Shown one piece after another: positions 5,413 through 31,313 of a stretch of DNA of 34,655 nt. Made by a program: the position numbers and the translations under genes. The first letter of the stretch is position 1. Every line of letters begins with the position of its first letter. Source of the DNA: a virus (lineage: Duplodnaviria; Heunggongvirae; Uroviricota; Caudoviricetes); IMG/VR virus record IMGVR_UViG_2548876936_000010; one strand, given 5' to 3'. The notes beneath the pieces are model-generated. The model searched no databases. It was given only the letters and a program-made list of their open reading frames with translations, and was not told where the DNA came from.

Positions 5413-6603
5413 TTAATTGCTGTTAACCGAAGTGACCAGATTTGCCAGGTATTTATCGGTAATACGCTGGCGCAGGGTCAGGTTTTCGAGAGGAGGCACC
5501 GGTGTATAGTCGTAGTCGATATACAGTTTTCCGGCCTTGAGGGTTTCCGCATCGTTGGATTCTTCGCTGAACCAGCAGGTCGCATCCACGATATAGCCGT
5601 TTGTTTTCAGCTCACGGAATTTGGCATTAATGCCGTCAACGATGTCGCGAATCAGCGTTGCGGTGATGGGCTTATCCACAGCCCACATGTGCGCCTCAGC
5701 CATCGTGTCGGCCAGCACCTGCGCGGTGCGGGTGTAGTTTTCAAAGAGGAACAGCGGGTCATCAGAGCAGGTACGGTTACCCCAGAAGCGGAAACCGTCA
5801 CGGCGAATCAGCGTTGTGACGCCTGACTCGTTAAGCAGGTCAGCATCGGTGCCGGACTCCTGCAAATCCCAGAATACGGACGCGCTGATGCCGGTAACAC
5901 CGTTTACCCCGACGTTGGACAGCGTTTTATGCCAGCCCTGCTCCTGGTCGATTTTAGCGCGCAGACCCAGCGCACGGGCGGTGGCATACGCGGTGGCGGT
6001 GGTACTGGTGACCGTATCCCATGCGAGGAAATCCGGCCAGATGACCATCAGCTCACGCTGGCTGAAATTCTGGCGGTAGGCTTTCACCTCGGAAATGGTC
6101 TTACAGCCCCATGCGCTGATATATCCGAAAGCGCGCAGCTTCTGACAGACGGATGCCAGTGCAACAGCCACCTCTTTGGTATCCAGTCCCGGCACACCGA
6201 GAATACGCGGTTTAACACCGGTTACCGACTCCGCCGCCAGCAGGGCTTTTAGTCCGGTGTACTGACCGTTTTCGTCGGTGGTGCCGATGATATTGGAAAC
6301 GGTCTGCGCGAGTTTCGTTTCCTCGTCATCACCGGTGCCGTCTTCCACGCGCACGACAACGGTGACCGGTTTTGACTGGTCAGCGATGGCCTGCAACGAT
6401 GCCGCCAGCGTGCCTTTTTTACCGGCCTTTGCAATTGCGCTTTGCACATTGGTAATCAGCACCGGTTTATTGAGGGGGAAGGTTTCCGCATCCGCATCGC
6501 TGGCCGTGCAGACCATGCCGACAATGGCAGTGGATACGGTGGAAATGACGCGGGTGCCGTCGTTAATCTCCAGCACCTGCACGCCATGATGATAGTCACT
6601 CAT
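5413..6603 (-). CDS. FI: Contractile tail sheath protein gpFI (396 aa)
   Basis: 396-aa ORF, ATG at 6603, first gene of the FI-FII-E-T-U-D block. Confidence 0.9.
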   Translation of the reverse strand: MSDYHHGVQVLEINDGTRVISTVSTAIVGMVCTASDADAETFPLNKPVLITNVQSAIAKAGKKGTLAASLQAIADQSKPVTVVVRVEDGTGDDEETKLAQTVSNIIGTTDENGQYTGLKALLAAESVTGVKPRILGVPGLDTKEVAVALASVCQKLRAFGYISAWGCKTISEVKAYRQNFSQRELMVIWPDFLAWDTVTSTTATAYATARALGLRAKIDQEQGWHKTLSNVGVNGVTGISASVFWDLQESGTDADLLNESGVTTLIRRDGFRFWGNRTCSDDPLFLFENYTRTAQVLADTMAEAHMWAVDKPITATLIRDIVDGINAKFRELKTNGYIVDATCWFSEESNDAETLKAGKLYIDYDYTPVPPLENLTLRQRITDKYLANLVTSVNSN

Positions 6604-6698
6604 CCGTTTAACTCCGTGGTTAATGGGTGCAACTATTTTCTGTTGTGCAGAGCATAAGACGCTATTTGACCTGGCTGGTCAGTGGATGAAACAACAGA

Positions 6699-6727
6699 TA
6701 AAGAAAAGGCGGGCAATTCGCCCGCCT
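6699..6727 (-). terminator. Candidate intrinsic terminator (8-bp GC stem aggcgggc/gcccgcct, 5-nt loop, T-rich tail on - strand)
   Basis: Inverted repeat 6707..6714 / 6720..6727; - strand continues tttctttatc; lies between the cargo island and the FI start. Confidence 0.45.
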
Positions 6728-6786
6728 GTCCTGATTTGTACTCACTCATTTTCCGCCTGACAATTTACATAGCCCAAATGCTATCA

Positions 6787-6802
6787 AATCTGACAGTCTG
6801 CT
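6787..6802. repeat. Left copy of 16-bp perfect inverted repeat aatctgacagtctgct bracketing the FI-G cargo island
   Basis: Exact reverse complement of 9220..9235; a related direct copy at 9092..9116. Confidence 0.8.
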
Positions 6803-6933
6803 TTGAGCGAAAAGTGGACATTAGAGTTACAAAAGCAAGTTTAAATCATCCAAAATATTACAATGTCCTTATCTATCTGATATCGTTATGATAAAAAGCT
6901 CCTGAATATAATCGATAGTAGGTGGTTATTTCC

Positions 6934-7311
6934 ATGAAATCAATTTTAGAGGTTTTTACTCAAGGAAATACTAAAGAAAAACTGGCTGTTATCGCCGATC
7001 TCACAACCATTGCGGGAATATCGATTGCAACTATTATTGCTGGTTTGTTAACCCTAGTTGCAAAAACAGATAAACTAGATGTTGGAAATCTGTTTGGAGT
7101 TGTCATAATATCTCTGCTCGGATTGGCTGGTGTTTGCTGTTTTGTGGCCTTATTTATTTGGGTTATAACCCAAATGTCTAAACCATGGGGAACACCTCGG
7201 GGGGTTCAGCCCTTAGTTAAGTGTGCTATTTCCCTTATCTTTATCTGTATGTTTTTGCTGGCTGTCTTTACATTTTATGAGTTTATTTCTTCGATGAGCA
7301 TACGCTATTGA
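6934..7311 (+). CDS. Small hydrophobic membrane protein (125 aa, about 3-4 predicted TM helices), function unknown
   Basis: ATG at 6934 preceded by aggtgg; long hydrophobic stretches (IAGISIATIIAGLLTLVA, VVIISLLGLAGVCCFVALFIWVI, ISLIFICMFLLAVFTF); AT-rich relative to flanking phage genes. Confidence 0.6.
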   Translation: MKSILEVFTQGNTKEKLAVIADLTTIAGISIATIIAGLLTLVAKTDKLDVGNLFGVVIISLLGLAGVCCFVALFIWVITQMSKPWGTPRGVQPLVKCAISLIFICMFLLAVFTFYEFISSMSIRY

Positions 7312-7333
7312 ATATAAAATCAGCCCCCATAAC

Positions 7334-7918
7334 TTAAAAGAGACCTTCTATATCGACTTCAATGCCCAAATAACGGACTGTGCTTTCCAGTTTCTTATGG
7401 CCCAACAGAAGTTGGATCACCCGGAGACTCTTGGTTTTCTTGTAGATTAAGTAAGGTTTTGTTCTTCTCATGGAATGTGTGCTGTACAGCGAATCTTCGA
7501 GACCAAGCTTTTCTACCCACCCATGAAAAATTCGGTTGTATTGCCGGGTTGATATATGGTGGTTAGTTCCGACCCGAGAGCGGAACAGGAAGCCTTTACT
7601 ATGCCAGTTACCGAGCTTTATCAATGCAGTAACCGCTTCCCTTGTCCCTTTGGTTATCTCAAATTGGACAGGGCTGCCGGTTTTCTGTTGCAACACCGTT
7701 GCTCTGCTTGAGACAGAACTGCCATATGCAGCATCTGATACTTTGAGTTTGACCAAATCACAGCCCCGTAGCTTAGTGTCCAAAGCCATGTTGAACAGAG
7801 CTAGATCGCGTGTTTTACCTTCCAACTCAAGTCTAATCCGGATCCCCCAGATATGAGATATCTGAAGTGGCCTTTTTTGACCGATGGTACGGTCTTTATT
7901 CCACGGTGACGTTTTCAT
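7334..7918 (-). CDS. Small stand-alone tyrosine recombinase (about 194 aa, catalytic domain only)
   Basis: ATG at 7918 preceded by AGGAGA; candidate catalytic residues present: R in KLRGCDL, K in QQKTGSPV, HSMRRT (HxxR), LLGHKKLESTVRYLG (H and Y); no N-terminal arm/core-binding domain. Confidence 0.7.
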   Translation of the reverse strand: MKTSPWNKDRTIGQKRPLQISHIWGIRIRLELEGKTRDLALFNMALDTKLRGCDLVKLKVSDAAYGSSVSSRATVLQQKTGSPVQFEITKGTREAVTALIKLGNWHSKGFLFRSRVGTNHHISTRQYNRIFHGWVEKLGLEDSLYSTHSMRRTKPYLIYKKTKSLRVIQLLLGHKKLESTVRYLGIEVDIEGLF

Positions 7919-8024
7919 ATTCAAATCTCCTGCAATGTGGGAGATTTGAGTATGGTTGTCTCTCAAGAGCGAAAATAAGTCAACTATTACTAGTTGTTGC
8001 GCATGTACGTATTCTGTCAATTAA

Positions 8025-8867
8025 TTATTGACAATCATCAATTCTGGAATGATCAAAATCATCATATCGAATTATAGTCTGGTTGACTGTATCTATTGTT
8101 GGTGTCATTTCTGTTATAATATCCTGATAACCTAAAGAGTTAAATACATTTACTAAGGCCTCACACCGAAGGGCCGTAGCAATTACAAAATTATAAATTG
8201 CCAGCCGTTTATTTTCTTGTTTAACTGCAAGAATGAATTCGATAGCAGTATTTTCATCACTTTGGATTGCATTATATAGAGATACTATATTTACCATATC
8301 ATCAGAGAATGTATGTATTGAATCACAAAGGGGAACGTAATGGGCATGATAGTGTGTTTCCCAGCCAATTAATTCAAAAAGTTTTCTGGTTCCTGGATAT
8401 TCAGGTGTATTTGGCCACAATCTATTAAATAGATCAGTTAGTTCTTTTCCCATGCGAATCCTTTCATTTGCTGCTGGATTAGTCATTCCTTTGGATTTTA
8501 AACACTCCAGCCACCGTTTTCCATTACTATGAACTAATTTCTTACTAGCCTTGAGTAATGCTTGTGCATTTTCGCCATCATCTATTGCTATATAAAATTG
8601 ATTGGCAGCCTGTTCTATTATAACCCTAGCTAATACTTCCGATGCTGAAAAGGCTCCTATATTCAAAGAAGAGATAGCCTGATTACTAAGTTCATTCAGT
8701 ACATTAAAGTACTGTAAGACCATCAATTTTTGTTCCACACCCTTTAGGTTGTCTATTTTATTTTTATGCTCCTCAAATTTTGCATGGATATATTTATTTA
8801 TCGCGGCTATTTTTTTTACATCTTCGTCAAGATCAAACGGGCAACGTCCAAACAATTCTTTTTTCAT
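8025..8867 (-). CDS. Hypothetical protein (280 aa), AT-rich cargo gene, function unknown
   Basis: ATG at 8867 preceded by AGGAGA with 6-nt spacer; ends 4 nt upstream of the recombinase gene; no motif I can recognise. Confidence 0.65.
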   Translation of the reverse strand: MKKELFGRCPFDLDEDVKKIAAINKYIHAKFEEHKNKIDNLKGVEQKLMVLQYFNVLNELSNQAISSLNIGAFSASEVLARVIIEQAANQFYIAIDDGENAQALLKASKKLVHSNGKRWLECLKSKGMTNPAANERIRMGKELTDLFNRLWPNTPEYPGTRKLFELIGWETHYHAHYVPLCDSIHTFSDDMVNIVSLYNAIQSDENTAIEFILAVKQENKRLAIYNFVIATALRCEALVNVFNSLGYQDIITEMTPTIDTVNQTIIRYDDFDHSRIDDCQ

Positions 8868-14301: not shown

Positions 14302-15087
14302 ATGGTCAGCTATAATGTGACTAATGTGTGGGGGCTAATCGTTTTTTTCCTTTGTAGCTTTGCAGTATTAGCATTTTTTAGCTTTGGTAAAAGTAACCTT
14401 ATGAGGCTTATTGCACATTATTTCAATTTTGGATATTCAGACAAAAAATTAAAAAGACTTGACCGCGAGTGGCGCGACATTCAACTATTTAAAATAATTA
14501 ACGGAATCAATGTATCAGGCATTGAAAATGTGAGAATGATACAGCAGGGACTGATTGATGGAAAACTAAAAACATCGTATTTTTTCCTTACTCGCATCTG
14601 GGGTGACATAACAAAACCACCACACATAATTAAAACAATAATTGTAATTCTGGCTAGTATTTTTTACATTCTTCTCGCATGTTACATACACAACGAACAA
14701 TCCGTTATAGTAAGGGATGCCATAGGCATACCATATAAAAACATGATGTACTATGTTTATAGTGACAAAGTTCTTTTATCCTTCAAAAATAAAGCAGTTG
14801 AATTTAATAAAACTTATAGCCTTGCCGATTGCAAGAGACTGCAAAACGTATTTATAAAAGACACACTTCCTGAGATCGCCTGCAATAAGCTCTTACAGCT
14901 AAACGAGGAGGACTCCGAATGGTTAAGTCAGGAGATTAAAGATAATAACAGTCACAAAAAAGCATTATTAATACTATCCCTCGTCTATTTCACTTCAGGT
15001 CTGGTTATATTCCTGTCATATACAAAATTCTTTTACGCCAATAAGAAGGTTTTAGAATACAAAGCATCAAATAAAAATCACTCATAA
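14302..15087 (+). CDS. AT-rich membrane protein (261 aa, three predicted TM helices), opposite strand to flanking late genes; moron
   Basis: ATG at 14302 with AGGAGA 5 nt upstream; TM segments VWGLIVFFLCSFAVLAFFSF, IIKTIIVILASIFYILLACYI, ALLILSLVYFTSGLVIFLSYT; marked AT-richness. Confidence 0.65.
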   Translation: MVSYNVTNVWGLIVFFLCSFAVLAFFSFGKSNLMRLIAHYFNFGYSDKKLKRLDREWRDIQLFKIINGINVSGIENVRMIQQGLIDGKLKTSYFFLTRIWGDITKPPHIIKTIIVILASIFYILLACYIHNEQSVIVRDAIGIPYKNMMYYVYSDKVLLSFKNKAVEFNKTYSLADCKRLQNVFIKDTLPEIACNKLLQLNEEDSEWLSQEIKDNNSHKKALLILSLVYFTSGLVIFLSYTKFFYANKKVLEYKASNKNHS

Positions 15088-21532: not shown

Positions 21533-23305
21533 ATGACCATCACCACAGACACCACTCTTTTACACGACCCGCGTCGTCAGGCGGCGCTGCTGTACTGGCA
21601 GGGATTTTCCGTGCCGCAGATTGCCGCCATGTTGCAGATGAAACGCCCGACGGTGCAGAGCTGGAAACAGCGCGACGGCTGGGACAGCGTTGCCCCCATC
21701 AGCCGTGTCGAAATGAGTCTGGAAGCGCGGCTGACCCAGCTCATCATCAAACCGCAGAAAACCGGCGGTGACTTCAAGGAAATTGACCTGCTCGGACGCC
21801 AGATTGAACGACTGGCACGGGTCAACCGTTACAGTCAGACCGGCAACGAGGCAGACCTTAATCCGAACGTCGCTAACCGCAACAAAGGCGGGCGGCGCAA
21901 ACCGAAAAAGAATTTTTTCAGTGACGAGGCCATCGAAAAGCTGGAGCAGATTTTCTTTGAGCAGTCTTTCGAATATCAGTTGCACTGGTATCGCGCCGGG
22001 CTTGAGCACCGCATCCGCGATATCCTGAAATCCCGCCAGATTGGCGCGACGTTTTATTTTTCCCGCGAGGCGCTGCTGCGCGCCCTGAAAACCGGTCATA
22101 ACCAGATTTTTCTGTCGGCCAGTAAAACGCAGGCGTATGTGTTCCGCGAATACATCATCGCCTTTGCCCGGCTGGTTGACGTTGACCTGACCGGTGACCC
22201 GATTGTCCTGGGCAATAACGGCGCAAAACTGATTTTTCTCGGCACCAACTCCAACACCGCACAGAGCCATAACGGCGACCTGTACGTCGACGAGATTTTC
22301 TGGATCCCGAATTTTCAGGTACTGCGTAAGGTGGCATCAGGTATGGCCTCACAGAGTCACCTGCGCTCGACCTATTTCTCCACCCCGTCCACACTGGCGC
22401 ACGACGCCTACCCGTTCTGGTCGGGTGAACTGTTCAACCGGGGACGCGCCAGCGCCGCCGAACGTGTGGAAATCGACGTCAGTCATAACGCCCTTGCCGG
22501 TGGTCTTCTCTGTGCGGACGGCCAGTGGCGGCAGATTGTCACCATTGAGGACGCCCTGAAAGGCGGCTGCACATTGTTCGACATTGAGCAGCTCAAACGC
22601 GAAAACAGCGCCGACGATTTTAAAAACCTGTTCATGTGTGAATTTGTTGACGACAAGGCATCGGTGTTCCCGTTCGAGGAGCTGCAACGCTGCATGGTCG
22701 ACACGCTGGAAGAATGGGAAGACTACGCGCCGTTTGCCGCAAATCCGTTCGGCTCCCGCCCGGTATGGATTGGTTACGACCCGTCACACCGTGGCGACAG
22801 CGCCGGATGCGTGGTGCTGGCACCGCCGGTGGTGGCCGGTGGCAAATTCAGAATACTTGAGCGTCACCAGTGGAAAGGCATGGACTTTGCCACCCAGGCG
22901 GAGTCCATCCGCAAACTCACCGAAAAATACAACGTCGAATACATCGGTATTGATGCCACCGGCCTCGGTGTCGGCGTGTTCCAGCTCGTGCGCTCGTTCT
23001 ATCCCGCCGCGCGCGATATCCGCTACACGCCGGAAATGAAAACCGCAATGGTGCTCAAGGCCAAAGACGTCATCCGCCGTGGCTGTCTGGAATATGACGT
23101 CAGCGCCACCGACATCACCAGCTCGTTCATGGCTATCCGCAAGACCATGACCAGCAGCGGACGCAGCGCCACCTATGAGGCCAGCCGCAGCGAGGAAGCC
23201 AGCCACGCCGACCTCGCCTGGGCAACCATGCACGCCCTGTTAAATGAGCCACTCACCGCCGGTATCAGCACTCCGCTGACATCCACCATTCTGGAGTTTT
23301 ACTGA
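21533..23305 (+). CDS. P: Terminase large (ATPase) subunit gpP (590 aa from ATG at 21533)
   Basis: ORF 21503..23305; ATG at 21533 after ggcgaggt; divergent from O; length as P2 P. Confidence 0.85.
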   Translation: MTITTDTTLLHDPRRQAALLYWQGFSVPQIAAMLQMKRPTVQSWKQRDGWDSVAPISRVEMSLEARLTQLIIKPQKTGGDFKEIDLLGRQIERLARVNRYSQTGNEADLNPNVANRNKGGRRKPKKNFFSDEAIEKLEQIFFEQSFEYQLHWYRAGLEHRIRDILKSRQIGATFYFSREALLRALKTGHNQIFLSASKTQAYVFREYIIAFARLVDVDLTGDPIVLGNNGAKLIFLGTNSNTAQSHNGDLYVDEIFWIPNFQVLRKVASGMASQSHLRSTYFSTPSTLAHDAYPFWSGELFNRGRASAAERVEIDVSHNALAGGLLCADGQWRQIVTIEDALKGGCTLFDIEQLKRENSADDFKNLFMCEFVDDKASVFPFEELQRCMVDTLEEWEDYAPFAANPFGSRPVWIGYDPSHRGDSAGCVVLAPPVVAGGKFRILERHQWKGMDFATQAESIRKLTEKYNVEYIGIDATGLGVGVFQLVRSFYPAARDIRYTPEMKTAMVLKAKDVIRRGCLEYDVSATDITSSFMAIRKTMTSSGRSATYEASRSEEASHADLAWATMHALLNEPLTAGISTPLTSTILEFY

Positions 23306-24324
23306 TGAGCAAGAAAAAAGGGAAAACACCGCGACCTGCGGCAAAAACAATCACCGCCAGCGCCCCGAAAATGGAAGCATTCACCTTTGGTGAGCCGGTG
23401 CCGGTACTCGACCGCCGTGACATTCTGGATTACGTCGAGTGCATCAGTAACGGCAGATGGTATGAGCCGCCGGTCAGCTTTACCGGTCTGGCAAAAAGCC
23501 TGCGTGCTGCCGTGCATCACAGCTCGCCGATTTACGTCAAACGCAATATTCTGGCCTCGACATTTATCCCGCATCCGTGGCTTTCCCAGCAGGATTTCAG
23601 CCGCTTTGTGCTGGATTTTCTGGTGTTCGGTAATGCGTTTCTGGAAAAGCGATACAGCACCACCGGTAAGGTCATCAGACTGGAAACCTCACCGGCAAAA
23701 TATACCCGCCGTGGCGTGGAGGAGGATGTTTACTGGTGGGTGCCGTCCTTCAACGAGCCGACACCTTTCGCGCCCGGCTCCGTGTTTCACCTGCTGGAGC
23801 CGGATATTAATCAGGAGCTGTACGGTCTGCCGGAATATCTCAGCGCCCTTAACTCTGCCTGGCTGAATGAGTCGGCCACGCTGTTCCGCCGCAAGTATTA
23901 CGAAAACGGCGCACATGCCGGATACATCATGTACGTCACCGATGCCGTGCAGGACCGCAACGATATCGAAATGCTTCGCGAAAACATGGTTAAGTCGAAA
24001 GGCCGCAACAACTTTAAAAACCTGTTTCTCTATGCCCCACAGGGGAAAGCCGACGGCATTAAAATTATCCCCCTCAGTGAAGTGGCGACGAAGGACGATT
24101 TTTTTAATATCAAAAAAGTCAGCGCCGCAGATCTCCTGGACGCACACCGCATCCCCTTTCAGTTGATGGGCGGTAAGCCGGAGAATGTCGGGTCACTAGG
24201 AGATATTGAAAAAGTGGCAAAGGTCTTTGTCCGCAATGAACTCACTCCATTACAGGAGAGAATAAAGTCAATAAATGAATGGTTAGATATGGAAGTCATA
24301 AAATTCCTTGATTATAACTTATAA
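23305..24324 (+). CDS. Q: Portal (capsid vertex) protein gpQ (339 aa)
   Basis: 339-aa ORF, start overlaps P stop; synteny P-Q. Confidence 0.85.
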   Translation: MSKKKGKTPRPAAKTITASAPKMEAFTFGEPVPVLDRRDILDYVECISNGRWYEPPVSFTGLAKSLRAAVHHSSPIYVKRNILASTFIPHPWLSQQDFSRFVLDFLVFGNAFLEKRYSTTGKVIRLETSPAKYTRRGVEEDVYWWVPSFNEPTPFAPGSVFHLLEPDINQELYGLPEYLSALNSAWLNESATLFRRKYYENGAHAGYIMYVTDAVQDRNDIEMLRENMVKSKGRNNFKNLFLYAPQGKADGIKIIPLSEVATKDDFFNIKKVSAADLLDAHRIPFQLMGGKPENVGSLGDIEKVAKVFVRNELTPLQERIKSINEWLDMEVIKFLDYNL

Positions 24325-24335
24325 GTAAATATATA

Positions 24336-24364
24336 AAGTTGGCGGAATGCAATCCCGCCAACTT
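24336..24364. terminator. 10-bp perfect hairpin (aagttggcgg / ccgccaactt, 9-nt loop) between convergent Q and the RT-module effector
   Basis: Arms 24336..24345 and 24355..24364; 2 nt after the effector stop; - strand continues with a T-rich tract. Confidence 0.5.
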
Positions 24365-24366
24365 AA

Positions 24367-25074
24367 CTATATATACTTCCTTTTTACTCTACTTAATTCT
24401 ATCACTGATGAGGAGTGACAAAATGACAAATTAATAGTATCGATATAATCCAAAATTTGACTCTCAACCTCAATAAAAATATTTTTGGGCCCATTACTAA
24501 TCGATATACCGATTTCATCCAAAACAGCCATCATTTTTCTCTGATGAGTTTTATATTTATAGTCTTTATTTTCCTCTGTAATATGTGCATTGGCTTCCTC
24601 AATAACACATTTGATTCTAGATATTATTTCTAGATAATCTCTCGAAACAGATATATCACCGCCTTGCGCTTCAGGGAACATAACCCTATACCATCTAAAA
24701 AAATTAACTTTCTCTGGATAGATGCTACTTCTTTTAGTTAACTCAGCACTTGCAAATTCTCTAAACATCGTCAGATGACTAGTGTAATTACTATTATTAT
24801 TATTTTTAACTCCAGCGTTATATGTCATCAAAGCAATCATAACACCAAAAACGGTAACAAAAGTTGTTATAAGCCATCCAAACGCCTGAAAATACATTAC
24901 TATACCAGATGTTTTTTCCGCAAAAAATTTTAAGCACTGGCTATCGAAGCATATATCACGCTCATATAGCTTTTCATTCTGAATAGTTTCAAAAAGAGAA
25001 ATTAGCGAAAAAATCAAAAAAAGAGCTGACGACACACCGACAATATATTTGAGAAGTCTAATATTTGCATTCAT
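24367..25074 (-). CDS. Two-TM membrane protein (235 aa) translationally coupled to the RT; candidate effector
   Basis: ATG at 25074 overlaps the RT stop (ATGA, 25071..25074); TM1 YIVGVSSALFLIFSLISLF, TM2 GIVMYFQAFGWLITTFVTVFGVMIALM, then about 150-aa soluble domain; AT-rich. Confidence 0.7.
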   Translation of the reverse strand: MNANIRLLKYIVGVSSALFLIFSLISLFETIQNEKLYERDICFDSQCLKFFAEKTSGIVMYFQAFGWLITTFVTVFGVMIALMTYNAGVKNNNNSNYTSHLTMFREFASAELTKRSSIYPEKVNFFRWYRVMFPEAQGGDISVSRDYLEIISRIKCVIEEANAHITEENKDYKYKTHQRKMMAVLDEIGISISNGPKNIFIEVESQILDYIDTINLSFCHSSSVIELSRVKRKYI

Positions 25075-26261
25075 AATGGTTTTAAAGATGCCAATCTAGA
25101 TTTAAAACACTCCAGTTTTTCTTTAAATGATTCAGAGCGAGTAAGAATAATCATCTTATATCTCGTCAAATCATATTTTCTTTTATACCAATGTTTATTT
25201 TGATTACCTTTCGAATACGACAACTCTAAACTTTTTATAGCTGCATCAATCACAGCAACATCTCTTTTAGATGGCATCGGTTTTATTGCCTGCAACTGTT
25301 TCTTGAATGATTCATATTTTTCATGCCCAACACGGCCAAGCTTATTCACTCTCCCCATACATCTATTGAATTCTTTTCTGTATGCAACACTTGTTTTTGT
25401 GTTATTTTTTGCCGCCAGTAATTTCAAATTATGTATAGATGCCCTGATTCTTTTGACTTCATCGGATGGTAGTCGAGGTGAGTCATAGTCAACTCTTAAA
25501 CCATGTACTTTTATAGGTTCAGATGAACAGTGAAATATTTTAGTTTTGTGCTTATTTATCGGCAAGTCATGCTCAGAAAGCATCCTCTCTATATGGCTTT
25601 GCATTTGAGAAAAATCATAATTACTTATTTTAGATGACACGGTAATATCATCTACCAAACGCGTATAAACAAGTCCTTTCCTCTGCGCACGTCTTACCAC
25701 ATCCCCTTCAACAGCGAATAAACACAAAGTTGCTATATAGCTTGATGTTAAGGCCCCCTGTACGACAAAATCATCCTTAGTACATATATCCACCAAGTAT
25801 TCAAGAGCCTCATCCTTAATATGCAATATCTCCTCAAACACGCTCCTAACCAGATCTCTATGGATATTATCGAAAAAATTACTTATATCCACCTTGAGAA
25901 CTGTTTTTGCTCCACAATGAGCCTTTGCACATGAAACATAGTCACGTTTGACATTAGAATTTAAAACATCATTTTTACTGGGAACTGAACCAAACAAAAA
26001 TGAAGGAAAAACAACCAATTCCTTAAAGATACGTTTATTAATTCTACTCTGTAATAATCTCATTTTAGGATGCAGGGAGTAGACAATCCGTTTGCTTCCG
26101 TCAATTTTGGGAATTTCTTTTAGAGTATATTTCTCATCTAATGATAATTCTGCAATAGCTTTAAGCTCTTCAACAGAAATCGATAAAGCCTTTGACAACT
26201 TTTCAAGTGTTGTGATAGGAGCATTGGATTTGCTGTATGGTTTAAATTTATCCATAAACAT
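25071..26261 (-). CDS. Reverse transcriptase, retron-like (about 397 aa; start ambiguous among ATGs at 26297, 26261, 26255)
   Basis: RT motifs in the translation: IPKIDGSKRIV, LLQSRINKRI, CAKAH...LKVDISNFFDNI, QGALTSSYIATLCL, YTRLVDDITV (YxDD-type), LPINKHKTKI, IKVHGLRV; basic C-terminal extension. Confidence 0.8.
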   Translation of the reverse strand: MFMDKFKPYSKSNAPITTLEKLSKALSISVEELKAIAELSLDEKYTLKEIPKIDGSKRIVYSLHPKMRLLQSRINKRIFKELVVFPSFLFGSVPSKNDVLNSNVKRDYVSCAKAHCGAKTVLKVDISNFFDNIHRDLVRSVFEEILHIKDEALEYLVDICTKDDFVVQGALTSSYIATLCLFAVEGDVVRRAQRKGLVYTRLVDDITVSSKISNYDFSQMQSHIERMLSEHDLPINKHKTKIFHCSSEPIKVHGLRVDYDSPRLPSDEVKRIRASIHNLKLLAAKNNTKTSVAYRKEFNRCMGRVNKLGRVGHEKYESFKKQLQAIKPMPSKRDVAVIDAAIKSLELSYSKGNQNKHWYKRKYDLTRYKMIILTRSESFKEKLECFKSRLASLKPL

Positions 26262-26512
26262 ACCATTCAAATTCAAAGTTACGTACGGTCTTCCCATACT
26301 CAAGGGTGGAACAGCAGAGATGCTTACATCAACAATTGTCAGCAACAGCCTCTGCTATCTTTCGACCGTACGTAATGTCGTCGGCTACGGCACCATCGTA
26401 GTTGACGACGGTGGGGCCTCGCTGATAGGTCCATAGTGGACGCTTTTTTGTAAAAGCAAAAACTGACAATTTAATGTTGTTGACTGCCGCATACCAAGCG
26501 AATCGCTGGTGC
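26262..26512 (-). ncRNA. Candidate structured non-coding leader of the RT (possible retron msr/msd-like RNA)
   Basis: 12-bp perfect inverted repeat ttacgtacggtc (26279..26290) / gaccgtacgtaa (26364..26375) with nested 7-bp repeat agcagag/ctctgct; adjacent hairpin 26377..26409; no ORF. Confidence 0.4.
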
Positions 26513-26519
26513 GCTAAGA

Positions 26520-26548
26520 ATAATGCAACAAAAAAATAAGAATTTCAA
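26520..26548 (-). promoter_or_regulatory. Candidate sigma70-type promoter for the RT module (-35 TTGAAA, 17-nt spacer, -10 CATTAT)
   Basis: - strand ggTTGAAAttcttatttttttgttgCATTATtc; -35 at 26548..26543, -10 at 26525..26520; between cos and the structured leader. Confidence 0.3.
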
Positions 26549-26586
26549 CCGGGTAACTGCAAGCCAGCGACATCGTTTAGCGCGCA

Positions 26587-26605
26587 GTGCTTTCCCCGCC
26601 TCGCC
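26587..26605 (-). other. cos: cos cohesive-end site (19 nt), - strand reads GGCGAGGCGGGGAAAGCAC
   Basis: + strand gtgctttccccgcctcgcc is the reverse complement of the 19-nt cohesive end I recall for P2. Confidence 0.65.
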
Positions 26606-26810
26606 CGCCCGCTACATGGGGCGGTTTTAATGCAGTTGCATGAACACGCCGGAGGCGTGCCAGCACTGGCGGCTCTCACACGTGACGAGAAAGGAAAACG
26701 CATGCGATTCAATGCAGTAATGCATGCAGGGCTAAAAATGTCAGAAAATACGGTAAAAACGCATAAAAAACCGGCATTCAGGTTACCGGTTTGAGTCAGC
26801 TTCATTGTGG

Positions 26811-26912
26811 TTACTTGTCGCGCAATGCGCCAATAATACTGGTAAGGCAACAAGTGGCAACAATCAGCAAAAAAACCGTTGTCCACGGATTCTCATAAAC
26901 GAGAGATAACAT
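26811..26912 (-). CDS. Possible small hydrophobic peptide (33 aa, MLSLVYENPWTTVFLLIVATCCLTSIIGALRDK)
   Basis: ATG at 26912 to TAA at 26813..26811, translated by hand; single TM-like segment; weak RBS; below the ORF-track size cut-off. Confidence 0.25.
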   Translation of the reverse strand: MLSLVYENPWTTVFLLIVATCCLTSIIGALRDK

Positions 26913-27312
26913 ATTGATATTGATCCTTTTATTGGTACATTATAATGCGACATTATCGGTCTTTAACAACCTGGCTGAGTTCTATCTTACCAATTTTCGT
27001 GATAAGCATTTAATCAATTACGTAGTATGGTTAAAGGCACACAAAGGAGAAAAATATGCGAATGCATTTTTTAGACAACCGACTTCCAAAAATCTTTTCA
27101 ACGTAATACAAAAAATTACAACCATCTATCAATTACAAATTAACAAATATCAACACTACCAGCTTAATTGCAGCAAAGATCAGGAGATAACATCACCACA
27201 ACAATAAATCAAAAACTGTTAGATTTGGCCAGAAATGCCAACTCCACACATAAATTCACGCAGATACATAGTTCATAATTAAACAATTTATCGACTTGGA
27301 GCGAATAGAATA

Positions 27313-28317
27313 ATGTCAAAAGAAAACACACCAATGGAACCAAGCATAAATATAAAGGCAGACTTCACTGAGATATTAAATTCATCGCCAAAGGGCGTTA
27401 AGTATATATTCAATATTCTCTTCGGAAAAAAACACGCAGAGGCCGAGAGAAGGATTAGGCTATCGAACGCTCAAGATTATGCAGATATGAAAAAGATCAT
27501 ATCTGGAGAAGCAACATATGATAATGAGAGGAACCAAATAACACCTTCTAACCAAGACATTAAGTCATTAATTGTTAGTGCATTGCAGGATGAGGAAATT
27601 AAAAATCTTATAGGCTGCATCAGAAGCGCCTCAGAATACATTAAAGATGATACTGATAACGATGGTGGTCCATCCCAAGACTTTATTAACAGATGGCGAA
27701 GCGATGCGAAACTAATCAGTGAACAGTCTATCCAGTACGTTTGGGGGCGAATTCTAGCGGAAGAAATAAACACACCTCAAACTGTAAGCGTAAGAACCCT
27801 TGATGTAATAAAAAACCTATCAAAAGAAGAGGCTGAATATTTCTCAGAGGTACTTGACTTTATATTTTACGATTCTTATTTGATTGATAATGGAGATACC
27901 AAGAATCCATTCATCTCACCAGAAAAAGGTCATAAATTGAGAGATGCAGGATTAATAGTTACTTTTACTCCTGGAATGTATTTCTCCGAGACATGGGATA
28001 CACAACATTTTGTTCTCAGTGGAGCCACCATACCAAAAGTATTCTACATCAGCAGTTCTGATAAGTATTACTTTATCGATGCAGGCAAAATAACTGACGA
28101 CCCTAAAATTCTGGTATGGAAGTTAACAAATGCTGGCAAAGAACTATATAAAATTCTAAAGAAAGATCATAAAACCAAAGAAGAATCAGTAAAAAAAATT
28201 ATTGACTGGATATTAAACAGCACTAAAGCTTCTGAGTTTTACCATGGGGATATTATTAAACATTCAGACAATAGCCTGTCAGTTGAGAACTTACTGACTA
28301 TAAGCAGAAATAGATAG
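27313..28317 (+). CDS. Hypothetical protein (334 aa), AT-rich cargo at the position P2 uses for tin/old
   Basis: ATG at 27313 with ggag upstream; no Walker A or other motif I can recognise; convergent with A; followed by a hairpin. Confidence 0.65.
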   Translation: MSKENTPMEPSINIKADFTEILNSSPKGVKYIFNILFGKKHAEAERRIRLSNAQDYADMKKIISGEATYDNERNQITPSNQDIKSLIVSALQDEEIKNLIGCIRSASEYIKDDTDNDGGPSQDFINRWRSDAKLISEQSIQYVWGRILAEEINTPQTVSVRTLDVIKNLSKEEAEYFSEVLDFIFYDSYLIDNGDTKNPFISPEKGHKLRDAGLIVTFTPGMYFSETWDTQHFVLSGATIPKVFYISSSDKYYFIDAGKITDDPKILVWKLTNAGKELYKILKKDHKTKEESVKKIIDWILNSTKASEFYHGDIIKHSDNSLSVENLLTISRNR

Positions 28318-28762: not shown

Positions 28763-31048
28763 TTAGCTCCACTCCGTTTCTGTTGAATACCCCGGCCACT
28801 CATCAGCGACCGCATAACTGAATTTTTTCTCGCCATATATCACCGTTGCACCTCGCGTCAGCGCCTCAAGCTCCCATCGCTGCGGTCTGATACCGTTCTG
28901 AGCAAGGTCAACGCGGATAGGGATGATTTGCAATCGTTCAGACCTGGTCAGTCTGGCAGATGGTGCAATTTCATGCGGTTTTAACGGGCTTCCGTTTCTT
29001 TGCTGACGATTTGATGTTCTCAGGCCGTGTTTTAATGCGCCCCTGAGCGCCCTCACGACCTCCGGGTCATTCCATTCGATAACACCGTCATCAACCAGAT
29101 TAAGCACTGCTGAGGCGTGCTCAGAAGGTGTGGGAGCCGGTAACGAAATATCACCACCGGTGAGCTTTCCACAGTTATTGACAGGACTCCGAGGCGCGGC
29201 GATGCCGCTTTTTAAAGTCAAAGGCTCAACGACCGGAACTTTCGGCACAATGCGCCAGTCCGTCGTTCTGGTGATATGAATATGACGCGCGCCGAGATGC
29301 GGCGCGTAAATGCCGACCACTCTCTCGACTTCTTCCTCGTACTCGTTAACGTCATCCGACGGGCTACGGGCAACCCTGACAGTCTGACAATCGCGCGGGA
29401 CATTTGCCCCACCCTGCGCGCTGATATACAACGCAAAATCACCACTGTCTGCGGCAGCGCGAGCAGCCTCGACGCGTTCGTCAAACTCATCAGCAATACT
29501 GACGCCGCGAGGCAATTTGCGTAGTTCACGGTAAGCCCCCATTGTCGGCAGGCCAACCGTTTTAAATTGCGGAATTCGCCACGTTGACGCCCATGCGGTA
29601 ACAGCCGCAGCAGTATCTTTCAGCGGCCTGCCGGTATCATTATCGAGCTGACCATCCAGTGCATAGCCATCGATGTTTTTTGAGATGTATTTTGCGATAT
29701 ACCCCGCAGCACCGCCCCGGTTAAGATGTTTTGCCTGAAAACGGTTTCGCGCGGCTCCTCTTTCGTCGCCATCCTCTTTGAGCGCATAGCGACGCATGAT
29801 TTCGATAATCTGGTTACGCTGGCGTGGATTACAAAAAAGCATCATATGCCAGTGCGGCGTTCCGTCGTGGTGTGGCTCGACGACACGCAAACCGTAGACC
29901 TGTAAATCATTATCCTTGAATGCCGTGCGCATCAGGCTCCAGATATGGCAGAGATAACGCTGCGCATCCTTTGGATTAAATGCCTCATCGTTCCAGCCGT
30001 GATTTAGCTGGACGGTTTTACTTTCGCCTTTTCCGACCTGACGTGTCGGGTGATACTTTGACGGCGCGGTAAGCGTGATAAACATCCCCACATCACCCTC
30101 TGCGGCGGCGTAACGCTCAATACCGGCAATGGTGTTCATCAGCTCCATCCGGCGAATTTCAGGATTAGAAATACTGCCCATCACCTTACTGATAAGGTCG
30201 ATGCGTTCGCCGGTTTCCCTGTTTTCAAGGTCACACGATTTAAGAAATTCCAGATTTGCCTGGCGGCGTGCACGCACATCACGAATGGCATGTTTACTGG
30301 CATAAGGTGAACGGTCTTTATTGACCTCCCCGACAGCAATCAGTAACGCCTCATGCCAGCGCATACGCTGGCCTTTAAGCTGACTAATCCACCACTCATC
30401 GTTAAACAGGCGGGCAATGGCAGAATATGCCTGCCTCGTGGTCATCTGTCCTTTACGGTATTTTTTCCAGTAGAGCGGGGAAATATTGAAAGCACGTGCA
30501 GCGCCAGCAACATGACCATAGAGGTGAGCCTGCGCCTCATCCGTAAACAGCGATTCTTTTTCGCCATGCGCATCCACCCAGGCATCGCAGAGTTCCTCAT
30601 ACATCATGAAAAGCTGCGATGAGATACGGGCGGCAAACTTTTTCAGCTCCTTATCATTCATCCCCGGCAGACGCGCATAATGGTCACGCTCTGCCAGAAA
30701 CAGCAACGACGCGTCGGTGTTCATTTCATGGCGCTGATTCACGCGCTCAATGCGCGGCCATAAACGACGCTGAAAAGTGGATGTGAGGAAATAAAACCCG
30801 TGCACCGGGCTTTTATTGCGCCGGATGTAGTCATAGCGTGAAGTAAACAGCGAGCGCAAAAAGTAAGGCAGGCGGTTAATCGTGGATAAAACACCTTGCA
30901 CCTGACGCATCTCGTCACGTGTAAGGGGTCTTTCGCGCCCGACGGCCTCGCGTGGCGCGTTCCATGCATAAGCACCGGTAAACGCCTTACCGGTGCCTGC
31001 AGCAAATGCTGACGGAGGGACAAAACGCCCGGAGGCTTTAACGGCCAT
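28763..31048 (-). CDS. A: Rolling-circle replication initiator gpA (761 aa from ATG at 31048)
   Basis: ORF 28763..31090; contains HUH-type motif (PHWHMMLF) and tyrosine motif GYIAKYISK; internal start MAVKASGRF... Confidence 0.85.
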   Translation of the reverse strand: MAVKASGRFVPPSAFAAGTGKAFTGAYAWNAPREAVGRERPLTRDEMRQVQGVLSTINRLPYFLRSLFTSRYDYIRRNKSPVHGFYFLTSTFQRRLWPRIERVNQRHEMNTDASLLFLAERDHYARLPGMNDKELKKFAARISSQLFMMYEELCDAWVDAHGEKESLFTDEAQAHLYGHVAGAARAFNISPLYWKKYRKGQMTTRQAYSAIARLFNDEWWISQLKGQRMRWHEALLIAVGEVNKDRSPYASKHAIRDVRARRQANLEFLKSCDLENRETGERIDLISKVMGSISNPEIRRMELMNTIAGIERYAAAEGDVGMFITLTAPSKYHPTRQVGKGESKTVQLNHGWNDEAFNPKDAQRYLCHIWSLMRTAFKDNDLQVYGLRVVEPHHDGTPHWHMMLFCNPRQRNQIIEIMRRYALKEDGDERGAARNRFQAKHLNRGGAAGYIAKYISKNIDGYALDGQLDNDTGRPLKDTAAAVTAWASTWRIPQFKTVGLPTMGAYRELRKLPRGVSIADEFDERVEAARAAADSGDFALYISAQGGANVPRDCQTVRVARSPSDDVNEYEEEVERVVGIYAPHLGARHIHITRTTDWRIVPKVPVVEPLTLKSGIAAPRSPVNNCGKLTGGDISLPAPTPSEHASAVLNLVDDGVIEWNDPEVVRALRGALKHGLRTSNRQQRNGSPLKPHEIAPSARLTRSERLQIIPIRVDLAQNGIRPQRWELEALTRGATVIYGEKKFSYAVADEWPGYSTETEWS

Positions 31049-31313
31049 ATGAGCCAAAAGCCTCTGAACAACGCCTGCTGAGTTGCTCAACCTGCGCGTT
31101 TAAATCAGCAAAAGACTTTGCGCTTCCGGTCAGAATATCGTGATGCATCAGGCCGGAAACAAGCTGGCTTAATTTCGGGTAATAACCAACCACCGCCAGC
31201 CATTCCTGACCGGCGTTTTTACCGCTTTCCGCTCTCTTTTTCTCGTGGAGAATAAACTGGAAGCTGTCACTGGTAACGACATAACGTTCGCCAATTTCAA
31301 TACGAATACTCAT
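31038..31313 (-). CDS. Small early-operon protein (91 aa), P2 orf83-position
   Basis: 91-aa ORF immediately upstream of A, overlapping its start; synteny only. Confidence 0.5.
   Translation of the reverse strand: MSIRIEIGERYVVTSDSFQFILHEKKRAESGKNAGQEWLAVVGYYPKLSQLVSGLMHHDILTGSAKSFADLNAQVEQLSRRCSEAFGSYGR

Follow-up and report, generated by a model that had tools for sequence, protein, structure and literature searches.

A minus-strand cassette between the portal gene and cos

The DNA analysed here is a stretch of 34,655 nt from a virus of the Caudoviricetes (IMG/VR record IMGVR_UViG_2548876936_000010; hereafter the window). Between its portal gene Q and a P2 cos site lies an AT-rich cassette, at approximately 24264..26578, the parts of which form a unit on the minus strand: a promoter-like site, a structured non-coding RNA (ncRNA), a reverse transcriptase (RT) gene, a gene for a membrane effector with two transmembrane (TM) segments and a terminator-like hairpin. 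Q is the ORF at 23305..24324 and encodes the portal protein (Phage_portal profile, 5.9e-14). The GC content is 0.30–0.37 over 24200..26400 compared with ∼0.55–0.56 in the phage backbone, and both observations bear out the AT-rich insert between Q and cos that had been noticed in a preliminary description of this DNA. The location given there holds, but its edges, drawn at the Q stop codon and at cos, do not: when the window is compared with phage 9W, a P2-like phage without the insert, homology ends at 24263 and restarts at 26579, and the foreign DNA thus begins at 24264, within the last ∼20 codons of Q, and extends to 26578. Therefore the cassette took the place of these last ∼20 codons, a terminator and a spacer of ∼160 bp.

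The cos match noted earlier at 26587..26605 is present as the P2-type 19-mer GGCGAGGCGGGGAAAGCAC, read from the sequence on the minus strand (26605..26587), which corresponds to the P2 cos site reported by Ziermann and Calendar (1990). The 65–72 nt around this 19-mer match terminal stretches of linear records of P2-like phages at 91–98%. A candidate promoter had also been proposed, and a consensus scan predicted a promoter-like site (TTGAAA, 17 nt, CATTAT) at 26548..26520 on the minus strand; both hexamers are kept in the closest homologous loci, and this site would put the start of the transcript near 26514. At the other end, a terminator-like hairpin (24364..24336, minus strand) lies 3′ of the effector gene and faces the Q stop codon, and the two elements flank the unit on both sides.

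The reverse transcriptase and its coupled membrane protein

The RT gene occupies 25071..26255 on the minus strand (394 aa), and other annotated starts are at 26261 (396 aa) and 26297 (408 aa). Judged by the lengths of the homologues, the start is most likely the ATG at 26255 or 26261, and not the TTG at 26345 that opens the mechanically called ORF. All of the motifs that had been quoted as canonical for an RT (IPKIDGSKRIV, LKVDISNFFDNI, QGALTSS, YTRLVDDITV and LPINKHKTKI) were found in the ORF, which also matches RVT_1 (1.7e-31). In the profile-HMM classification that had been suggested for this protein, the best PADLOC profiles were all those of retron RTs, with RT_IV at the top over the full length (1.1e-176, 586 bits), followed by RT_V (2.4e-63) and RT_VI (4.9e-54). 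Among NCBIfam models, those of retrons St85 and Ec67 scored highest, both under their own cut-offs, and the closest PDB sequences were the RTs of retrons Ec86 and Kva2; sequence searches of the PDB retrieved no structure for either the RT or the effector of Ec48.

Moreover, the sequence carries two departures from the usual retron pattern. Simon et al. (2019) described retron Ec48 as one of two outliers in which the N of NAXXH is substituted, and its VTG triplet as changed to VHG. Here, region X (NAXXH) has CAKAH at residue 140 of the ORF, and region Y has VHG at residue 280 in place of its VTG triplet, which fits these peculiarities of Ec48. Counted from the ATG at 26297, the catalytic aspartates of the LVDD motif are residues 216 and 217, in agreement with the D216A/D217A mutant of Millman et al. 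(2020), and the exact 408-aa sequence is present on 322 contigs.

The second gene (24367..25074, minus strand) encodes a protein of 235 aa and is coupled to the RT gene: the sequence itself shows that the two share an ATGA at 25074..25071. The protein has hydrophobic stretches at residues ∼7–30 and ∼62–85, and the coupled two-TM protein of the preliminary description is thereby confirmed. It matches the PADLOC profile 2TM_IV (4.1e-85) and the NCBIfam equivalog NF038235, retron_Ec48_2TM (‘retron Ec48 family effector membrane protein’), with 226.7 bits against a cut-off of 65. Its exact sequence is named TM48_ECOLX in UniRef (‘Retron Ec48 transmembrane protein’) and occurs on at least 1000 contigs. 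The Pfam release searched gave no match to the effector, and precomputed tables give the newer family PF28197 (Retron_Ec48_antiviral) for its homologues. Type IV retrons are defined by a two-TM effector, with Retron-Eco6 (Ec48) as an example (Mestre et al. 2020).

A conserved, covarying ncRNA precedes the RT gene

Upstream of the RT gene, a hairpin-rich leader of ∼230 nt had been proposed. That this RNA is structured was confirmed by folding, in which the leader beat 200 of 200 shuffles (z = −4.4), but its limits have to be moved: the conserved RNA, taken as the conserved block in an alignment of eight loci, is the ∼240 nt from 26514 to 26274 on the minus strand, and comprises the msr-msd part and a downstream hairpin. 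We collected 40 related loci, and the eight closest (57–77% RT identity) were aligned over 26514..26274. A covariance model, R1, which contains two long-range helices (beta and gamma) and the local hairpins and leaves out a third long-range helix (alpha), matched over its full length immediately 5′ of the RT gene in 34 of 38 type IV loci, at RT identities down to ∼42%. Folding and covariance-model search, the two checks suggested for the leader, both point to a structured and conserved RNA. An Rfam scan of 24000..27400 at E ≤ 1 returned no match; the type IV ncRNA appears to lack a counterpart among the Rfam models, and this negative result says nothing about whether the element is a retron.

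All three long-range helices show compensatory changes in the unfitted eight-locus alignment. Alpha pairs 26483–26463 with 26342–26329. Its 5′ strand belongs to the a1 repeat (26491..26463, minus strand; segments 26491–26489, 26483–26479 and 26471–26463), and its 3′ strand to the a2 repeat (26342..26321, minus strand), which accounts for the greater part of the loop at the tip of the beta/gamma hairpin. Compensatory changes were seen in 7 of the 14 pairs of this a1/a2 helix, with 93–100% of the cells paired in the unfitted alignment, and when the apical loop of 28–31 nt was compared with the P1–P3 segment, the complementarity was significant against shuffled loops in 32 of 34 loci. The a1 repeat ends with G26463, the candidate branching guanosine, and this column holds a G in 24 of 34 sequences. 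It is followed by the msr body (26462..26391, minus strand), in which the hairpins P3 (26457–26442), P4 (26441–26429) and P5 (26413–26391) show covariation. Further downstream, the beta and gamma arms build a hairpin of ∼97 nt (26375..26279, minus strand) that also includes a small hairpin at 26306–26293. In the fitted alignment, beta (26375–26364 with 26290–26279) has compensatory changes in all 12 of its pairs and is 97% paired, and gamma (26358–26349 with 26320–26311) has them in nine of ten pairs; the unfitted alignment gives the same picture for both.

The cassette is retron Ec48

The Ec48 clone of Millman et al. (2020) allowed a direct comparison at the DNA level, for which the start of the insert, its first 399 nt, was taken from their Supplementary Table 4. 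Within these 399 nt, positions 88–399 align to 26647..26336 of the window with three mismatches, at 26644, 26637 and 26614, which are substitutions in the cos-side flank. Because all three lie at or above 26614, the promoter and ncRNA stretch 26613..26336 (278 nt) is 100% identical to the tested Ec48. The first 87 nt of the insert, beyond 26647, could not be aligned to the window, so that the source prophage of the clone has another neighbour on the tin-old side. Because the insert text compared was its first 399 nt, we infer the identity of the coding part to the Millman clone from the exact-sequence names and the residue numbering.

All tested parts match Ec48/Retron-Eco6 (Mao et al. 1997; Millman et al. 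2020; Mestre et al. 2020). The likeness covers the RT clade, the motif deviations, the two-TM effector, the ATGA coupling, the ncRNA (100% identity across 278 nt) and the P2 cos next to it, a site that even the published Ec48 clone includes. We therefore read the cassette as retron Ec48 (Retron-Eco6, type IV), which a P2-like prophage carries as cargo in its hotspot beside cos, with a probability of approximately 0.96. The retron-type architecture of RT, membrane effector and structured RNA suggested by the preliminary description is upheld by RT_IV (1e-176), 2TM_IV and the covarying ncRNA. Its suggestion that the combination might be novel did not survive, as RT, effector and ncRNA are all those of Ec48/Retron-Eco6; the observation is real and not new, the element being a characterised retron that was previously cloned and tested.

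Of 5426 complete E. coli genomes searched with megablast, 57 contain the whole module at ≥99% identity, and in each of them the portal gene lies next to it; RefSeq labels its DNA in the 57 genomes as retron Ec48 family effector. Escherichia phage pro147 also carries the module, and has a second RT of 514 aa just across cos. Retron Ec48 itself was reportedly described in 1997 by Mao, Inouye and Inouye (J Bacteriol 179:7865), and a 2023 prime-editor engineering paper is said to mention it 31 times.

The preliminary description had left open that the RT belongs to the Abi-P2, AbiA/AbiK or DRT (UG-class) enzymes, which would act without a retron ncRNA or msDNA and would instead use routes such as protein-primed or template-jumping DNA synthesis. 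P2-like phages carry such defence RTs in the neighbouring tin-old slot, the 514-aa RT of phage pro147 just past cos is a second enzyme at this place, and weak, sub-threshold matches of the present RT to Drt3a, Drt2 and AbiA were indeed recorded. These matches amount to 24–40 bits against cut-offs of 200–390 (Drt3a 39.8 against 200, Drt2 34.8 against 390, AbiA 23.9 against 250), far from the 586 bits of the full-length match to the retron profile RT_IV, and such profile scores rule out the Abi and DRT assignments; moreover, 34 of 38 related loci have upstream an ncRNA that is conserved, covaries and contains an a1/a2 duplex, and the DNA is identical to that of a retron known for making msDNA. 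We consider this reading to have practically no chance of being right. A cassette that is truly Ec48 could also be a decayed or silent remnant, non-functional in its present host, but the RT and effector ORFs are intact and the same as widespread alleles (322 and at least 1000 contigs), promoter, ncRNA and terminator are intact as well, and the ncRNA is 100% identical to that of an active clone, which makes decay very improbable.

Assignment of the msd template and the branch point

For retron Ec48, the candidate msd template is 26390..26343 on the minus strand. Exactly 48 nt separate a2 (26342) from the base of P5 (26391), and the donor site of the retron census (130;136) lies within 26343..26390 for any plausible start of the ncRNA. 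Because of these two observations, and because a G ends a1 and is followed by the covarying msr hairpins, and because the first ATG past a2 to open an ORF is that of the classical 408-aa ORF (the ATG at 26328 comes before it but runs straight into a stop codon), we infer that the a1/a2 duplex is alpha and that the msd has these coordinates. The msDNA of 48 nt would then probably be the plus-strand sequence CAACAGCC...GGCTACGG. Neither Mestre 2020 nor Palka 2022 gives the sequence of msDNA-Ec48 in its supplement, and it is likewise missing from those of the retron census and of the type VI preprint.

Alternatively, the retron could be as described with beta as the a1/a2 helix, a branch point at G26363 and msDNA copied from 26291..26338, so that the 5′ end of the msDNA would read TTCCCATAC... 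instead of the CAACAGCC... of the alpha model. Folding of the two candidate 48-mers as DNA cannot separate these models, because neither folded better than its own shuffles. Beta is a perfect 12-bp inverted repeat with the strongest covariation among all helices, and in all eight close homologues the nucleotide after its 5′ arm is a G; across the wider set, G26363 is found in just 14 of 34 loci. Moreover, the branch point would have no msr hairpins after it, an ncRNA that begins at 26375 would have 97 nt only, incompatible with a donor site at 130–136, and the start of the classical 408-aa ORF (26297) would fall within the msd, whereas alpha leaves exactly 48 nt between a2 and P5. Taken together, these points make beta an unlikely priming helix, and alpha is used as the a1/a2 duplex in what follows.

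Several other pairings were tried and rejected. For a1/a2, the pairing of 26500–26486 with 26391–26379, which came from the single-sequence minimum free energy fold, and that of 26512–26504 with 26398–26390 both use a 5′ partner that lies in the local covarying hairpin P1 in homologues, and the pairing of 26573–26562 with 26386–26375 has a 5′ arm that falls beyond the conserved ncRNA, on the upstream side of the promoter-like site. A 13-bp inverted repeat (26409–26397/26389–26377), considered as the msd stem, is without conservation in homologues.

A hairpin that crosses the a1/a2 duplex

Across 34 type IV loci, a2 forms the apical loop of the covarying ∼97-nt hairpin, the 3′ strand of which ends 18–24 nt before the RT start codon and the 5′ strand of which is probably the msd template. 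The a1/a2 duplex and this hairpin cross, so that they would either form a pseudoknot or represent two alternative states. We found no description of such a crossing of a1/a2 with an msd-to-RT-leader hairpin in the literature compared, to which Mao et al. (1997) and the figures of the classification paper did not belong. The type IV ncRNA may have an undescribed architecture, with a2 in the apical loop, the msd template as the 5′ strand and the 3′ strand close to the RT start, although we hold this proposal to be rather doubtful and treat the crossing arrangement as a modest lead, not as a finding. If it were true, the hairpin would be lost for good once the template had been reverse transcribed and RNase H had acted, and synthesis of msDNA could be coupled to the translation or stability of the RT-effector mRNA, similar to the recent report on type VI. 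In any case, the comparative RNA analysis supplies a concrete and testable structure for the type IV ncRNA.

Function and proposed mechanism

Cloned Ec48 defends E. coli against lambda-vir, T7 and other phages from three families, and defence is abolished by the DD-to-AA mutation of the RT or by deletion of the TM helices of the effector (Millman et al. 2020). [quoted passage not shown] Lambda Gam was reconfirmed as an Ec48 trigger in 2025. The Ec48 RT-DNA is reported to be ∼48 nt long, or three bases shorter by sequencing, with a 3′ end that is shaped by RNase H1. It is published experiments on the same sequence that established the defence phenotype, its dependence on the active site of the RT and on the TM helices, and the RecBCD trigger. 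An annotation of this prophage can confidently list a second-line abortive system that guards RecBCD and lies next to cos.

In the mechanism that we propose, a single minus-strand transcript from ∼26514 would comprise the ncRNA together with the genes for the RT and the effector. The RT would bind the folded ncRNA, prime from the 2′-OH of a guanosine in which the a1/a2 duplex ends (probably G26463), and copy the neighbouring template, probably 26343..26390, into the 48-nt msDNA. In uninfected cells the RT-msDNA complex would keep the two-TM effector silent, and inhibition of RecBCD by a phage (lambda Gam, T7 gp5.9) or loss of recB would release it. The effector then probably acts on the inner membrane, and membrane damage of this kind may kill the cell before the phage cycle is complete (abortive infection). 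In one study the Eco6 accessory protein on its own was not toxic, so the picture of a toxin held in check may be too simple.

Relation to other cargo of P2-like prophages

The slot between Q and cos is already known from published retrons and as a defence hotspot of P2/186-like prophages. Rousset et al. (2022) described the gpA–gpQ cos-proximal region of P2-like phages as a hotspot of defence systems that include retrons, and the published clones of Ec67, Ec86 and Ec48 all start at a cos-like sequence (Millman et al. 2020). The present locus is one more case of a retron that occupies this slot in P2/186-like phages. Retrons Ec67 (Eco2) and Ec86 (Eco1), which reside in 186-related prophages (Dodd and Egan 1996), share the logic of insertion, but their RTs belong to clades I-C and II-A, their triggers are others, and their effectors, a Toprim fusion and a nucleoside deoxyribosyltransferase-like protein, differ from that of the present locus.

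Se72/Retron-Sen1 (type V) and the type VI retrons are sister groups within RT clade 3 with closely related RTs. Se72 is likewise triggered by Gam and by loss of recB. The effectors differ, with a cold-shock-domain protein in type V and an HTH protein plus a small protein in type VI, and in type VI the synthesis of msDNA is repressed until the trigger, whereas Ec48 makes its msDNA constitutively. Old of phage P2, an abortive system with an ABC ATPase-TOPRIM protein, is also cargo of P2-like prophages that adjoins cos, but it sits on the opposite side, in the tin-old slot, is an unrelated protein that works without RT or msDNA, and has a tRNA-cleaving nuclease as its effector.

Structure of the retron ncRNA

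In type IV retrons, as seen in the window and among the related loci collected for comparison (L001–L040), the ncRNA contains a covarying hairpin of ~97 nt (26279..26375), whose 5′ strand is probably the msd template and whose 3′ strand ends just ahead of the RT start. The apical loop of this hairpin is the a2 repeat (26321..26342), which pairs with a1 at 26463..26491. Since a2 lies in that loop, its duplex with a1 crosses the hairpin, and the result is a pseudoknot or a switch. On the 3′ side of the hairpin, the motif AACTTTG is invariant among the 8 close homologues.

Insertion site and mobility of the retron

At the other end of the cassette, the final ~20 codons of Q, the portal gene (24264..24324), are part of the AT-rich insert rather than of the P2 backbone; the portal C-terminus was thus rewritten by retron insertion. 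Q encodes 339 aa in the window compared with 344 aa in phage 9W, a P2-like phage without the insert. Two related type IV retrons, L036 and L040, found in Providencia and Morganella, lie in P4-like satellite contexts: upstream of each are an Ogr/Delta gene and a primase (Zn_Ribbon_Prim/Toprim/DUF927), and in L040 an integrase is close to the retron. A phage-type integrase is likewise close by in L038 and L039, for which no satellite genes are on record. Evidently, the type IV retron family moves between phage-related elements.

Genes across cos and elsewhere in the window

The same Ec48 retron is present in Escherichia phage pro147 (NC_028896), where the tin-old slot, just across cos, holds a second RT of 514 aa (6513..8057 of that genome, annotated 'RNA-directed DNA polymerase'), so that one cos site is flanked by two different RT systems. 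In the window, by contrast, this slot is occupied by an AT-rich 334-aa ORF (27313..28317, + strand) that matches DUF2806 (1.4e-19) and is flanked by cos and replication gene A (28763..31090). Its TIGR03899 match scored 60.5 bits, below the cut-off of 155.65, and PADLOC returned nothing convincing, only PDC-M35B at 0.0017. This ORF could be uncharacterised defence cargo.

A 261-aa ORF at 14302..15087 (+ strand, opposite to its neighbours) coincides with a local GC dip (0.40) and had neither a Pfam nor a PADLOC match. Among the late genes, a low-GC island (0.35–0.42; 7334..8867, − strand) carries two protein genes: one encodes an integrase-family protein of 228 aa (PF00589, 1.5e-17), the other a DUF5677 protein of 280 aa (5e-10). 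PADLOC matched neither of them. This island may occupy the Z/fun-type variable slot.
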